From Octopus vulgaris (lineage: Eukaryota): a DNA stretch of 64,000 bases. The stretch spans positions 14,508,001 through 14,572,000 of the forward strand of contig OX597815.1 in NCBI GenBank assembly GCA_951406725.2, given 5' to 3'. This document shows, one piece after another, positions 10,254 through 33,666 of the stretch. Under the pieces are notes generated by a model, which saw nothing but the letters and a program-made list of their open reading frames with translations, made no database searches and was not told the origin of the DNA. Both the position numbers and the translations under genes were made by a program. Every line of letters starts with the position of its first letter. The first letter of the stretch is position 1.

Positions 10254-10540
10254 AGTCGCCATGATAGATCGTTAACCACTACACACATTTTTTCTCTCCT
10301 TGTTTCTCCCCTTTTTTCTCTCCTTTTTTCTCTCCTGTTTTTCTCTCCTTGTTTCTCTCCTTTTTCTCTCCTTTTTTCTCTCCTTGTTTCTCTCCTTGTT
10401 TTTTTCTGTGTCCCTTTCTGTAGAAGAGCGTAGGCTCGAAACGTAAAAGACTTTTTTCAATTCCTCAGCGTTATACTAATACATCTATTTGTTTTGTACA
10501 CCACCTGTCTTCGTCTTTTGTTTTTTTCGTAAACTCTCCC
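10254..10540 (+). mobile_element. Hammerhead-containing mini-element (family H1) between (TACA)n arrays
   Basis: Homologous to 30114-30320 in the opposite orientation; internal TTTTCTCTCC tandem expansion; hammerhead motif at 10414-10449. Confidence 0.75.
10414..10449 (+). ncRNA. Minimal type-I hammerhead ribozyme motif, variant core CUGUAGA
   Basis: CTTT-CTGTAGA-A-GAGC(GTAG)GCTC-GAAA-CG-TA-AAAG: stem I CTTT/AAAG, stem II GAGC/GCTC, palindromic stem III ACGT, UA site. Confidence 0.65.
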
Positions 10541-11735
10541 TACATACATACATACATACATACATACATACATACATACATACATACATACATACATACA
10601 TACATACATACATACATACGTACGTACGTACGTACATACATACATACATACATGTTTATAAATAGGCACACACAAACCTCACAAAGTACATAATTTTAAC
10701 ATTTTTGCATTGAACGTAAAACGGATTTCTCTTTGCTGATCTTTACACGGTTCGTATATGTTCGCAAGTTTTTTCTTTCCCGTCGTTTCTCAACGATACT
10801 CTACAATCCGCATCCGCACGCTCAGATGCATAACACTTTTTTCGATGTTCCATAGGAGTCCGTGTCCTTCAAGATCAACCTGACAATATACCAATACTGA
10901 AGAGGAAATTAGACAGGTCATAGCCACGTAAAAATTAATAATCACTTTAAATACTTTCAAAGAGCCTCTGTGGATGTGTGTAGATTGTGTCTAACAAGTA
11001 AACTTCTGAAGATAAATTAATAGAGAAAAGTATCAGAATTTAAAAGATGATAGATATAGCGTCAAATGAACAATGACAGTCTGTGATTATACACTTGACT
11101 GACCACCGACTGTCAATTATCGATCGAGCAGAACTGGTTAATTACATAATTACTATGTCTTCTCTTATGTCACCTTGTTTGGCTGCGATCGTCATTTATA
11201 CAAAAGGTTATCGATCGACATCACTGTCACGGTCTTAAACGGTCATCATCATCATCATCATCATCATCTTCATCAACACCATCATCACTGTTGTATTTTA
11301 CTTTTACTACTCTGCACTTTTGAATCGGTGTAACAATAAATTTATAGGTATACATACACATACACATACATACATATACATACATTCACACCCTGCGGCA
11401 TACACACGTATATACATACATTTATGTATATGTGTGTGTATGTAAAAGACACGAGTGCATATATGTGGGAAAATATATATGCTAGATAGGCAGACACACA
11501 CACATAAGTACGTTTATATATATATATATATATATATATATATAAACGTACTTATGTGTGTGTGTCTGCCTATCTAGCATATATATTTTCCCATATATAT
11601 ATATATATATATATATATATAAACGTACTTATGTGTGTGTGTCTGCCTATCTAGCATATATATTTTCCCACATATATGCACCCGTGTCTTTTACATACAC
11701 ACACATATACATAAATGTATGTATATATATATATA

Positions 11736-12295
11736 CTAGCAGTATAGCTCGGCGTTGCACGGGTTTGTTTTTTAGTTGCGCTTAAAACAGAAGACTTTGA
11801 TGTCGCGTTTACAAAGTTTTGACATAGTTTCAATCTATGAATAAAAGTAGGGTGTGGTGATGCTCGAGTTTGCTCTGAATGTGCATTGGATCAGCTGATC
11901 CGTCGTTCGCTCAAAACCAATGACATCACAAAAAAATTCTTTTCGACCTTTTAGAATTGAAGTTTTTGAAAGGTAAAAATTTTGCATTATGTAGCTTGTT
12001 ATTCTCTTTAAGTAAACGTTTCTCTGATTGAAATACACCGAAAATTGGCGACAAAGCAGTCAAACAATCGTAAAAAATAGGGATTTCCATAGAAAAAAAA
12101 AGCACCTTTTTGATGTAAATAATTTTTGGTGTTAACATGGTCCGATTTTAGTTTTATCTTCTACAGAATGAAGAGCAAGCCTTCTTCTATCATACTCTCA
12201 ATTTTGGTCAACTTGCACCGCAGGGTCTCGGAGGAGATAGTGTTAGTTGAAGGCTACCAAACCTGCCATACACAGACAACTTCAGCTTTATATAT
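11736..12295 (-). mobile_element. Non-autonomous Helitron (family B, long form)
   Basis: 3' CTAG at 11736-11739 preceded by a hairpin; colinear with 51936-52328 plus an extra segment of about 170 bp. Confidence 0.8.
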
Positions 12296-30500: not shown

Positions 30501-30786
30501 CACCGTGACCGACCAGGCTATCAGATGTTGCTACACATCGCTGGTCACAATGCGCTTGCATTTTTTAGCCTTCAAATGATGCCACCCTGCTGGCTAAGCG
30601 AGCAGGCCAACAGAAGAAAGAGTGAGAGAAAGTTGTGGCGAAAGAATACGGCAGGGATCGCCTAACACCCCCTGCCAGAACGTTGTGGAGCTTTAGGTGT
30701 TTTCACTCAATAAACACTCACAACGCCCGGTCTGGGAATCGAAACCGCGAGTCCGCTGTCCTAACCACTGGGCCATTGCGCCTCCA
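30501..30786 (-). mobile_element. SINE family 2, tail type ii
   Basis: Same head and CACAACTTTCTCTCACTCTT core as 15651, with a different 3' part. Confidence 0.8.
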
Positions 30787-33463
30787 CTATATATATATAT
30801 ATATATATTGTACATCACACCCGAGCCGTTATAATTAATTTGTTTATCCGTATAAATGCCAATATATATATATATACACGCTCTACTATCAAACAGTGCG
30901 AATGAGTGCTCAACGTGTGGTAGGTTTGAAAATTGTAAAGAAATCCCTCTTTACAAGAGGTAGCCTAGTTAACCATAAATAAAGTGTGTGTGTGTGTATG
31001 AAAGAGAGAGAGAGAGAGAGAGAGTGTGTGTGTGTGTGTGTGTGTGTGTGTGTGTGTGTGTGTGTGTTTTGTGTGTTTGTGTGTGCATGTTATGTGTGTG
31101 AACGCATGTGTACATATAGTATATATTTGTGTATATATATGTTGGGTGTATGCATATATAGTTGTGTGTATACATATGTATATATGTATGTATGTATGTA
31201 TGTATGTATGTATGTATGTATATGTATGTATGTATGTATGTATACATGTATTTATGTGTGTATGTGTGTATGTATATATGTATGTATGTATGTATGTAGT
31301 GTGTGTGCCTACTACATTTTGTATTGGGAAAAAGATTTTAAGAGAAATAGTGATGGAGTCTCCGTAATGTATTAAGTTATAAAGCTGTAGGCGAAAGCAG
31401 AATGAAAGATATGTAAAGATAGAAATTATTATTAAGTATACGTTTAAAGAAATCTGCTTGAGTTGGAAGTAAAAGTAGAAGCACAAGAAATTGAATAATG
31501 CTGCAATTTAAGACGATTGTAACAGTATGTATCGTTAAAAGTAGTGGCTTCCTCTATAACTTAACTTGATGAAGGGGAAGTCGCTCAGTGGGGCATCTTT
31601 ACCAGCTATTAGATGGTAAAGATGCCCCAACATCTGTTATCGTTTAAATAATGGAGCAAATTAGAAGAAATAGTTTCTAAGAAAGTAAAACATACAGTAA
31701 TTTATTGTATAGAAGGAAATGTTTAAGATTAGTGGGAATATCGGCCGATTTTGAGAGGGTATAAAAGTTGCAGACGTTATTTGGTATTATGACGTGATTG
31801 CATGCATTCGAGCAAATAATTGAAATTGTACGTGAAACAGTTGAGGAAGTGAGTGAGGTGAAGTAATGGCTGTCATATATATATGTTAAGGGAACTTCTC
31901 GGAGAAATATTACTTTTTAATAAGCCGTTTATTAGAAAAAGAAAGCAGAATTCAAATCTAACTGAATTTGACAACTGTCATAAATATATTTGTGGTTACA
32001 AAGTGTCTCCAACTTCAGCAGGGAAAAAGAATAGTAGGCATGACTATCCCCAGTCGAGTTTCGATGTAGAGGATTCCCTGCTCTGTCAATGTGAAGAATG
32101 CTTACAGCTACTGGAATATGAGGAAGAAATAAGGCAGCAGTGTGCATGATGTAAGAAGCAGCAGAGCCTCTCGCTGCTTATGGAGTAAGGGAGAGGAGAA
32201 AATTTAGAATTCAAGAGATAATGAACAGATATTTAGCCACCACTGCCGACACCATCAACGGGAGTGTGTGATAGTTCAGGGTCGAAACATCCAATGCTAG
32301 TTGAATACCGTCAGATGACATCAGTTCCTCCTGGTCAAAGCTACAATCACCAAAGATCAATGAAAGAGGAGCACCTTCTTTTAGATGTAATCAATATCAT
32401 AAAGGGAGCAGTAACTCAAAGAATTATATACTATATAAGATCAAAGGATCTCTGTGACTATTATATTACAAATAATGGCATAAGTTAGTCGTTATATTTT
32501 CATATATGACAAAATTATTGCGACAAAGAAAACATTGATTAAATTTTAAGAATCAAAAACAAAATAATGTCGAGAGAGTCAGCCATTGGATATGACTGGA
32601 AAGGGATGACGAAACCTTGTTAAGAGATGATGTGTGAGTGAGAAGCAGGTACCTGTTTGCCTATAAGTCCACAATTTGCATGGTCGTGATGATCCTGAAA
32701 AAGAACTTAAGAGTAAATACTAGTCAGTGAAACCAGTAAGTGGAGTCTCGCGTCATTGGGTCGGAGGGAGCGATGCACTGTAATGCCGTCAAGAGGAAGA
32801 CCCAAAATGGCACGCAATCTCTCCCGGTGACCCCTGATACCTACTGGTGTTCGATATGCCGAATTTTCGATTGACTGCATTGCACAGTCAAGCTGTTTGT
32901 AAATGTTCGATGAGATCTGTTGAAAGGCATCATTGAAATGAATGGGTATTGTGACAGTTATGACTAGTATTAGCAGAAATATTATTATCAATAAGCTTTT
33001 TAGGTCTTTCATAACAAACACAGTATTTGAAGAGTTATGTTTAAGATGTTAAAGTCTATAATTAGTACGCTGTAATTTTTCCATTGACCACTGATAGTGA
33101 AGATACAATTTGTTACTTTTAAATAAATCGATGTAGATTATTTCAAAAACCTACATATAATTGTGTAAAAGTTCAGAATTCAGACGATGAACATTTTAGT
33201 ATTGTTTTCGTTTTCTGAAATAGCCCAAAGGCTATTTGTCTCTTTTGGTTCCTCAATTTCTTGGAAATTCCGCTATGATAGTTCTATTCCTCAACATGAA
33301 GACGATGTGGAAAGATTACTACGAAAATAAGTACAGACACAAATAACACACACATACACACAGGTGAATATATGTATATATATATATATATATATATATA
33401 TATATGAAGGATATATATGTACATATATATATATATATATATATATATATATATATATATATA

Positions 33464-33666
33464 AGTTAATCCAAACATGAAAACACAAAGAGAAAACACA
33501 ACAACGCGAGGACGTGGAACAAATATAGCATTATTGGACGCTCAGGAAGGAAGGGAAGAAGGACGGTTTTACGTTTCGAGCGGAGCTCTTCGTCAGAAAC
33601 ATAGGAAAAGGAAAGATCCAGAGAAGGCAAGACGGAGGGAAAAAATCGCCAACGGTACACACGCGG
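33464..33666 (-). mobile_element. Hammerhead mini-element family H2 in (TA)n
   Basis: About 200 bp between TA arrays; shares the hammerhead and the downstream TTCCTGAGCGT motif with H1. Confidence 0.75.
33566..33600 (-). ncRNA. Minimal type-I hammerhead ribozyme
   Basis: GTTT-CTGACGA-A-GAGC(TCC)GCTC-GAAA-CG-TA-AAAC: canonical core boxes, stems I and II paired, palindromic ACGT stem III. Confidence 0.8.

Follow-up and report, generated by a model that had tools for sequence, protein, structure and literature searches.

The minimal hammerhead ribozymes described in the pseudo-long terminal repeats (pseudo-LTRs) of metazoan Penelope-like elements (PLEs) have a 4-bp helix I, an extra nucleotide before helix II, a G10.1-C11.1 pair and a palindromic 15.2-16.2. 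They cleave weakly, as dimers, and occur genome-wide mostly as single motifs tied to truncated PLEs, with few in full elements (PMC4209133). Random truncation is the usual explanation for single motifs (PMC4209133), and the role of PLE hammerheads has been called unclear (PMC8557442). The Neptune/Nematis PLEs with an endonuclease (EN+) combine a reverse transcriptase (RT), a CX2-5CxxC linker and, C-terminally, a GIY-YIG domain with a pseudo-LTR partial tandem, an optional tail and a hammerhead in the pseudo-LTR, and in Neptune and Naiad a bias toward TA has been described (Craig et al. 2021, PMC8557442). Metazoan non-LTR retrozymes, for which an origin from PLE pseudo-LTRs has been proposed, are non-coding, measure 200-350 nt per unit and contain a type I hammerhead; their arrays are tandem, their hammerheads canonical and their circles proven, and monomers are common in some families (PMC7229834; bioRxiv 10.64898/2026.07.22.740005). 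Here we analyze three short non-coding elements with minimal hammerheads in a 64-kb window of Octopus vulgaris DNA (the whole stretch of 64,000 nucleotides at positions 14,508,001 to 14,572,000 of contig OX597815.1, assembly GCA_951406725.2), which share many of these traits.

Judged by sequence, the three elements are solo pseudo-LTRs, or 3' ends, of two Neptune-type families (A and B) and not a separate retrozyme system, because copies that bear an open reading frame (ORF) end in these units too. We give a probability of about 0.65 to the whole model, in which solo Neptune-type pseudo-LTRs are copied in trans from short uncleaved RNAs started ~200-216 nt before the end. End stubs of PLEs that carry minimal hammerheads and lie at TA repeats are already a known kind of object. 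Two features were not found in the literature searched, a fixed unit length that likely marks a start site and an apparently family-wide A6U change in the ribozyme core. The fixed-size stubs likely report the start site and a copying from uncleaved RNA. The accessible text of an octopus repeat-annotation paper does not mention ribozymes (PMC13282606).

Solo terminal units and their parent elements

The units, hammerheads and flanks lie as follows, in coordinates of the whole window.

10211..10252, no strand: (TACA)n flank on the 5' side of the 10254 unit
10254..10540, + strand: family A solo terminal unit, a pseudo-LTR of a Neptune-type PLE, 95% identical to a long A copy end over 169 nt
10291..10401, + strand: 12-bp pyrimidine-rich tandem repeat, 9.2 copies, inside the 10254 unit
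10414..10449, + strand: minimal type I hammerhead motif with variant core CTGTAGA, core from 10418, U6 at 10421, predicted cleavage after 10445
10461..10471, + strand: TTCCTCAGCGT motif, common to families A and B
10541..10653, no strand: (TACA)n flank on the 3' side of the 10254 unit
30060..30113, no strand: (TA)27 at the 3' end of the 30114 unit
30114..30321, - strand: family A solo terminal unit, starting at CAGTC, 94% identical to a long A copy end
30204..30239, - strand: minimal hammerhead motif, core CTGTAGA from 30235, predicted site 30208
30322..30375, no strand: (TA)27 at the 5' end of the 30114 unit
33368..33463, no strand: (TA)n at the 3' end of the 33464 unit
33464..33666, - strand: family B solo terminal unit, 97% and 96% identical to the ends of two EN-linked copies
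33566..33600, - strand: canonical minimal type I hammerhead motif, core CTGACGA from 33596, predicted cleavage after 33570
33667..33782, no strand: degenerate (TA)n, 76% matches, at the 5' end of the 33464 unit

All three elements lie where a preliminary description of this DNA had placed them, bounded on both sides by TACA or TA repeats (degenerate on the 5' side of the 33464 unit). Each hammerhead has a 4-bp stem I, an extra A, a GAGC/GCTC stem II, GAAA and a UA site, and is followed, as also described there, by TTCCT(G/C)AGCGT and a T-rich tail. The palindromic ACGT stem III is present in the 10254 and 33464 copies and broken (ACAT for ACGT) in the 30114 copy. The traits of minimal PLE hammerheads, namely a short helix I, the extra base before helix II, G10.1-C11.1 and a palindromic helix III, are present; helix II has 4 bp, compared with 7-8 in schistosome families (PMC4209133). 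With the core relaxed, a hammerhead descriptor picks out exactly three sites in the 64 kb (mean 0.08 and maximum 1 in 100 shuffles), and the strict-core descriptor picks out one, the 33464 copy. The minimal type I layout claimed for every element stands, and the canonical core is missing from 10254 and 30114 (CTGTAGA). An Rfam scan of the window gave no hammerhead among the best 150 of 223 matches, which were microsatellite-driven microRNA models only.

The 10254 and 30114 units are 93% identical over 173 nt and form one family (A), so that the elements, which had been called divergent, fall into two families. The internal 12-bp repeat expansion is the sole source of the extra length of the 10254 unit, whose first base is the A of an initiator-like CAGTC. 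Beyond a ribozyme segment 85% identical over 34 nt and the 11-nt motif that comes after it, families A and B have little in common; stem covariation between them comes down to a single stem I pair (C-G versus G-C), stem II being identical. The three units match the 3' terminus of long copies at 94-97% (best long reference) and end on its last base.

We traced copies that extend upstream of the unit and found an AC-rich 3' untranslated region (3'UTR) and then the end of a GIY-YIG domain. Of the 18 loci retrieved with the B-linked endonuclease stretch, a same-strand B unit lies ~1-3 kb downstream in 16, one has a 57-bp piece of the unit and one has no unit. RT and EN lie upstream of the A unit in 2/2 extended A loci (A loci with RT peptides are 2 of the 20 long A loci). 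The ORF order in B is RT core, C-X4-C-X2-C linker and GIY-YIG; an RT core followed by GIY-YIG is seen in L064-L066, L080, L174 and L175, and the linker region, read in B copies, is deleted in the A fragment L174. Pfam matches are below the cut-off (GIY-YIG, E 0.0019; RVT_1, E 0.023), and the ORF has 107 homologues with identity up to 61%, most with RT and some with GIY-YIG domains. One locus, L170, holds a whole family B partial tandem with a hammerhead-bearing pseudo-LTR, in the order 3'UTR, unit, TTATAT, 5'UTR, ORF, 3'UTR and unit; its tandem junction (unit end, TTATAT, 5'UTR) is at L170:3280-3300 (oriented), and the unit-5'UTR junction occurs at 69 places. By these features, as laid out in PMC8557442, and not by phylogeny, the parents are placed as EN+ PLEs of the Neptune/Nematis type. 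The preliminary description had itself allowed that the elements might simply be the ends of full PLEs, and this is borne out in part, ORF-bearing copies sharing these ends. The GIY-YIG remnants that it had reported in the window were not confirmed: neither RT nor GIY-YIG remnants turned up at E<=0.01 in tblastn with four peptides of families A and B and nine from PLEs at other loci, a result that leaves room for distant families.

Fragments of GIY-YIG or RT from other PLE families lie beside or inside copies at L093, L097, L167 and L174 (opposite strand), L096 and L018. At L302, L310 and L327, an inverted unit stands head-to-head upstream of a truncated unit, the usual inverted pseudo-LTR arrangement of PLEs.

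In the 2.8-Gb assembly, exact core patterns match 22,356 A-type copies (several subfamilies) and 4,685 B-type copies, in agreement with the high copy number that had been predicted. Exact 3'-end patterns give 3,542 B and 4,604 A matches, and control patterns none (0). The window trio belongs among more than 25,000 solo end-pieces of Penelope-type elements at TA repeats.

TA targeting and the 5' edge of the unit

The copies ranked highest by BLAST are biased to near-full units, and position-ordered samples were therefore used instead. For each family, these comprise the 70 exact matches to the 3' anchor that come first on contig C1, of which 69 were aligned, and they favor copies with an intact 3' anchor. 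In these samples, a TA-type repeat is found 3' of the unit in 65/69 B and 59/69 A copies and 5' of it in 38/69 B and 42/69 A copies (~58%), compared with a background rate of 9-12%. Because the 3' TA is far more regular than the 5' TA, we conclude that TA targeting is real and fixed by the 3' end; the flank enrichment proposed earlier holds on the 3' side and is not general on the 5' side. An extra TT precedes the TA in 23/70 sampled solo B copies, as in the tandem junction of L170 (TTATAT), which suggests that the TA-rich end of the element RNA may pair with the target.

The 5' ends, counted in nt from the 3' end of the unit, are not random truncations. In family B, 22 ends are below 194, 42 at 194-218, two at 229-231 and none from 249 to 549, and three copies are long; in family A, 35 are below 192, 24 at 192-203 and six at 209-225, and four copies are long, with none between. 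Long copies are thus rare (3/69 B, 4/69 A) and outnumbered by short ones ~15-20 to 1. A constant drop-off rate would give 2.7 (B) and 1.1 (A) copies in the pile-up windows, which were chosen post hoc, after the data were seen. An initiator-like site lies ~216 (B) or 202 nt (A) from the end, and 64/69 B and 59/69 A copies stop at or before it; the 5' end of the 33464 unit is ~12 nt downstream of this site. The unit is a discrete piece of ~200-218 nt whose 5' and 3' ends are both defined; it has no ORF, and because it codes for nothing it must be mobilized in trans. Its sharp upper edge in short copies differs from the graded truncation in PMC8557442; 5' ends of single copies, mapped here, are not mapped in the main text of PMC4209133.

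At the edge, the sequence is TCATTC for family B and CAGTC for family A. The strict initiator-like consensus BCAKTY occurs once per last 700 nt in both B references, at 216, and in one A reference at 202 and 598. By eye, older A-type subfamilies largely keep a similar CA(T/G)T start followed by TCGCCATG, a motif that presumably resembles a YY1 site. Among the first 35 of the 69 junction copies, the upstream unit starts at <=216 in 27 of the 34 aligned, the largest lengths within this limit being 216, 214 and 208. The sharp pile-up, the initiator-like motif, the edge of the upstream pseudo-LTRs and the analogy with Penelope and Chlamys-3 suggest that the edge is likely the 5' end of the RNA, at a polymerase II start site. 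A start site within the pseudo-LTR is reported for Drosophila Penelope (PMC2377424) and Chlamys-3 (PMC8557442). In Drosophila virilis Penelope, the start site and a TATA-less internal promoter lie in the pseudo-LTR upstream of the hammerhead, a layout like the one proposed here; the start was measured there, whereas ours is deduced (PMC2377424). The Penelope downstream element RGACGTGY had no match by eye at the usual spacing in our units (PMC2377424). Assembled contigs of four presumed-RNA runs cover the unit in pieces; such contigs cannot show starts, cuts or circles.

The ribozyme core and its A6U change

The inserts run across the hammerhead motif instead of ending there. The predicted cut lies within 3 nt of the insert 5' end in 0/69 B and 1/69 A copies, which rules out that insert ends are set by the cleavage site. 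Because the inserts span the motif and almost none begin at the cut, it is likely that a short uncleaved RNA is copied in trans.

Family B has the canonical core CUGANGA...GAAA...UH, with A6 in 95 of the first 100 of its 4,685 matches. Family A fails this core: A6 is found in only 309/22,356 A-type copies, and in the first 100 A-type matches position 6 is T in 94 and position 7 takes all four letters. Among 114 copies found by the 3' flank alone, a set dominated by one subfamily, U6 is present in 111, and A/T/C/G are found in 88/11/8/7 copies at position 7 and in 101/10/2/1 at position 17. The A-type subfamilies vary at hammerhead-tolerant positions, U6 excepted. Some A6 A-type copies belong to older subfamilies with different flanks, which suggests that A6 may be ancestral in the A-type lineage; others look like single-copy mutations. 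Among sampled copies that are long enough, 27/53 and 29/55 have no intact core and stem II, so that about half of the cores are lost, as expected under neutral decay. The ribozyme is 0.91 identical against 0.74 for the flank in the 10 most divergent A copies and 0.94 against 0.93 in the 93 closest; this is suggestive of conservation above the flank, in rows binned by flank identity and required to have a recognizable ribozyme region.

The U6 change of family A is expected, by analogy, to weaken cleavage, and the commonest family, with a changed invariant letter, may spread without cutting. Dimer-cleaving PLE hammerheads are reportedly treated by Lunse et al. 2017. Cleavage is slowed by changes at core position 6: a natural one is found in the phage Bcep176 hammerhead, whose A6C core cuts poorly in Mg2+, a defect that Mn2+ rescues (PMC3088659, PMC7151607); that case is a single phage ribozyme, whereas A6U here, as read from sequence, is fixed in ~22,000 copies of several subfamilies. 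The core variant in the main text of PMC4209133 is U3-A8 and not U6. Among the papers listed by our literature search, none was on a natural A6U hammerhead; Lunse et al. 2017 and the supplements of PMC4209133 and PMC3088659 may list U6. Minimum-energy monomer and dimer folds of family B did not return the active hammerhead fold and were not used. A natural paired test of the role of cleavage in mobility would come from comparing family B, which has the canonical core, with its sister family A, in which A6U is fixed; each has thousands of copies in this one genome.

Some B subfamilies often carry a CCGACGA (U4C) core, which is present in 9/16 long ends and 4/44 short ones and was noted at L297-L329 and in long B copies. 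At L061:5000-6500, a tandem-duplicated repeat has GAAACGTA upstream of CTGAAGA, with the hammerhead parts in reversed order.

Mini-tandems and the template of the units

In a weakly supported tree of B ends (44 short, 16 long), 7/16 long ends are placed among short copies, with which they have diagnostic letters in common, the other nine form their own supported clade, and no short-only clade above two rows is supported. An extra unit-like piece lies near 9/70 B and 6/70 A loci; a separate same-family neighbor in the same orientation is present at only 3/140 loci and is 72-81% identical. The stubs look like products of autonomous lineages and not like tandem retrozymes. For the window copies, a tandem retrozyme was considered and rejected, as they are monomers of minimal architecture by inspection and same-orientation neighbors are this rare; inspection also showed no canonical hammerhead with loop 1-loop 2 tertiary contacts in them. 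Dispersed monomers and insert ends away from the cleavage site thus speak against the retrozyme reading of the preliminary description. Of the microsatellite-targeting, PLE-mobilized system that it had proposed, the PLE link, the 3' TA targeting and the non-coding ~200-218 nt unit are retained, and the separate system is not.

In kind, the units do not differ from the ends of copies that bear an ORF, and only rare mini-tandems are retrozyme-like. Among 35 junction loci (L295-L329), 17 are mini-tandems of a unit, 36-477 nt of 5'UTR and another unit, 10 consist of a unit plus a tail of 41-131 nt (30-40 in PMC8557442), and eight continue into the ORF. In family B mini-tandems, such as L308, L320 and L330-L332, the cores are ~440-460 nt apart where both are intact. 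The breakpoints mostly differ; one junction recurs at three loci on three contigs, and therefore some non-coding re-amplification likely occurs. The two-unit mini-tandems are candidates for nascent retrozymes, and their re-amplification fits the proposal of Li et al. 2026 that retrozymes originate from pseudo-LTRs. The units together with the mini-tandems may offer a concrete route from pseudo-LTR to retrozyme.

We propose that the unit has its own promoter, from which polymerase II would start at the 5' edge. Any unit, whether an upstream pseudo-LTR, a downstream one or a solo copy, could be transcribed into the TA-rich sequence behind it. The GIY-YIG endonuclease of the family would then nick a TA repeat, RT would prime on the TA-rich RNA end, and copying would proceed to the RNA 5' end or drop off earlier. 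The hammerhead would be a passenger in insertion, would need a partner copy to cut and, in family A (U6), would likely be slow or dead.

Several observations weigh against this proposal. None of the loci examined has an intact ORF, each being interrupted by frameshifts or stops. At the edge, the second A reference lacks the strict motif and shows a loose initiator form only, and the looser consensus occurs 13-16 times per 700 nt. The upstream unit extends beyond 216 in 7/34 junction copies (one at 240, six at 401-1149 nt), and longer templates therefore exist. The B mode is at 209 and not at 216, so that an extra step is needed, likely 5' joining at AT microhomology, and half of the family A copies (35/69) fall short of the pile-up. 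On the B tree, the short and long labels cluster more than chance would give (7 changes versus 14.3 shuffled), in part because an exact anchor was a condition of the short sample: the nine-row long clade differs at anchor positions, and its short copies would therefore have been left out. In both families, the edge falls in a predicted hairpin loop (-9.4 and -14.1 kcal/mol), so that an RT stall or a processing site is possible.

This last point leads to an alternative that we regard as unlikely, in which the units have the same Neptune-type origin and a hairpin ~205-220 nt from the end sets the edge by stalling RT or by an RNA cut, the stubs being truncation products of full-length transcripts. 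Both edges lie within the predicted loop, the B mode at 209 and the ends at 200-209 fall on the 3' arm, which RT meets first, and 5' truncation is typical for PLEs (PMC8557442). However, a 7-bp hairpin would have to halt ~90% of RTs that are already past the hammerhead stems; older A-type subfamilies have no hairpin by eye, yet largely retain the CA(T/G)T start and TCGCCATG; and the upstream pseudo-LTRs are bounded by the identical edge. Quite unlikely is the view of the preliminary description, an independent self-propagating lineage similar to short interspersed nuclear elements (SINEs) or retrozymes, with solo units as main masters that evolved apart. The ~15-20 to 1 excess of short copies would fit it, as would a promoter brought by the unit itself, the junction recurring on three contigs and the known non-autonomous PLE derivatives (MRC1 in PMC8557442; bioRxiv 10.64898/2026.07.22.740005), but the seven long ends among short copies, the lack of a supported short-only clade above two rows and the scarcity of separate neighbors (3/140) do not.

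Circular RNAs made by hammerhead cleavage and ligation, a model proposed in PMC4209133, are a highly improbable template of the inserts. The canonical core of family B (95 of the first 100 matches) is in their favor, together with the 17/35 junction loci that are two-unit mini-tandems and the 6/34 junction copies with 401-1149 nt upstream, which look like copies of more than one unit of a circle, but tandem read-through explains these long upstream copies equally. In addition, solo inserts begin and end away from the cleavage site, a monomer with one ribozyme cannot excise a circle, and family A expanded while carrying U6. A wider reading, which we consider possible and rather unlikely, takes the Neptune pseudo-LTR as a ready-made polymerase II SINE, of which every solo copy with a retained initiator could be transcribed anew and re-inserted. 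RT template jumps would join units to 5'UTR pieces, and the resulting two-ribozyme mini-tandems would themselves be copied and give birth to retrozymes. U6 would be a selected slow or conditional ribozyme, which let family A reach more than 22,000 copies while the fold was kept. If true, this would be a direct genomic test of the purpose of PLE hammerheads.

Other repeats are found in the window. A fragment at ~33783-33960 (+), probably of a LINE-like (long interspersed nuclear element) endonuclease, adjoins the family B copy, and an RT C-terminal remnant at 20849-21370 (-) is presumably LINE-like as well. A transposase in two frames at 57617-58614 (-) is, judged by its motifs, probably Tc1/mariner-like. 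An abundant 184-bp repeat forms short tandems at 2441-2809, 14391-14759, 53209-53571 and 60796-61573, and a 53-bp minisatellite of ~31 copies with higher-order periods occupies 26872-28484. A near-perfect palindrome around (TA)15 (11464-11596, 11516-11677) overlaps a 77-bp duplication.

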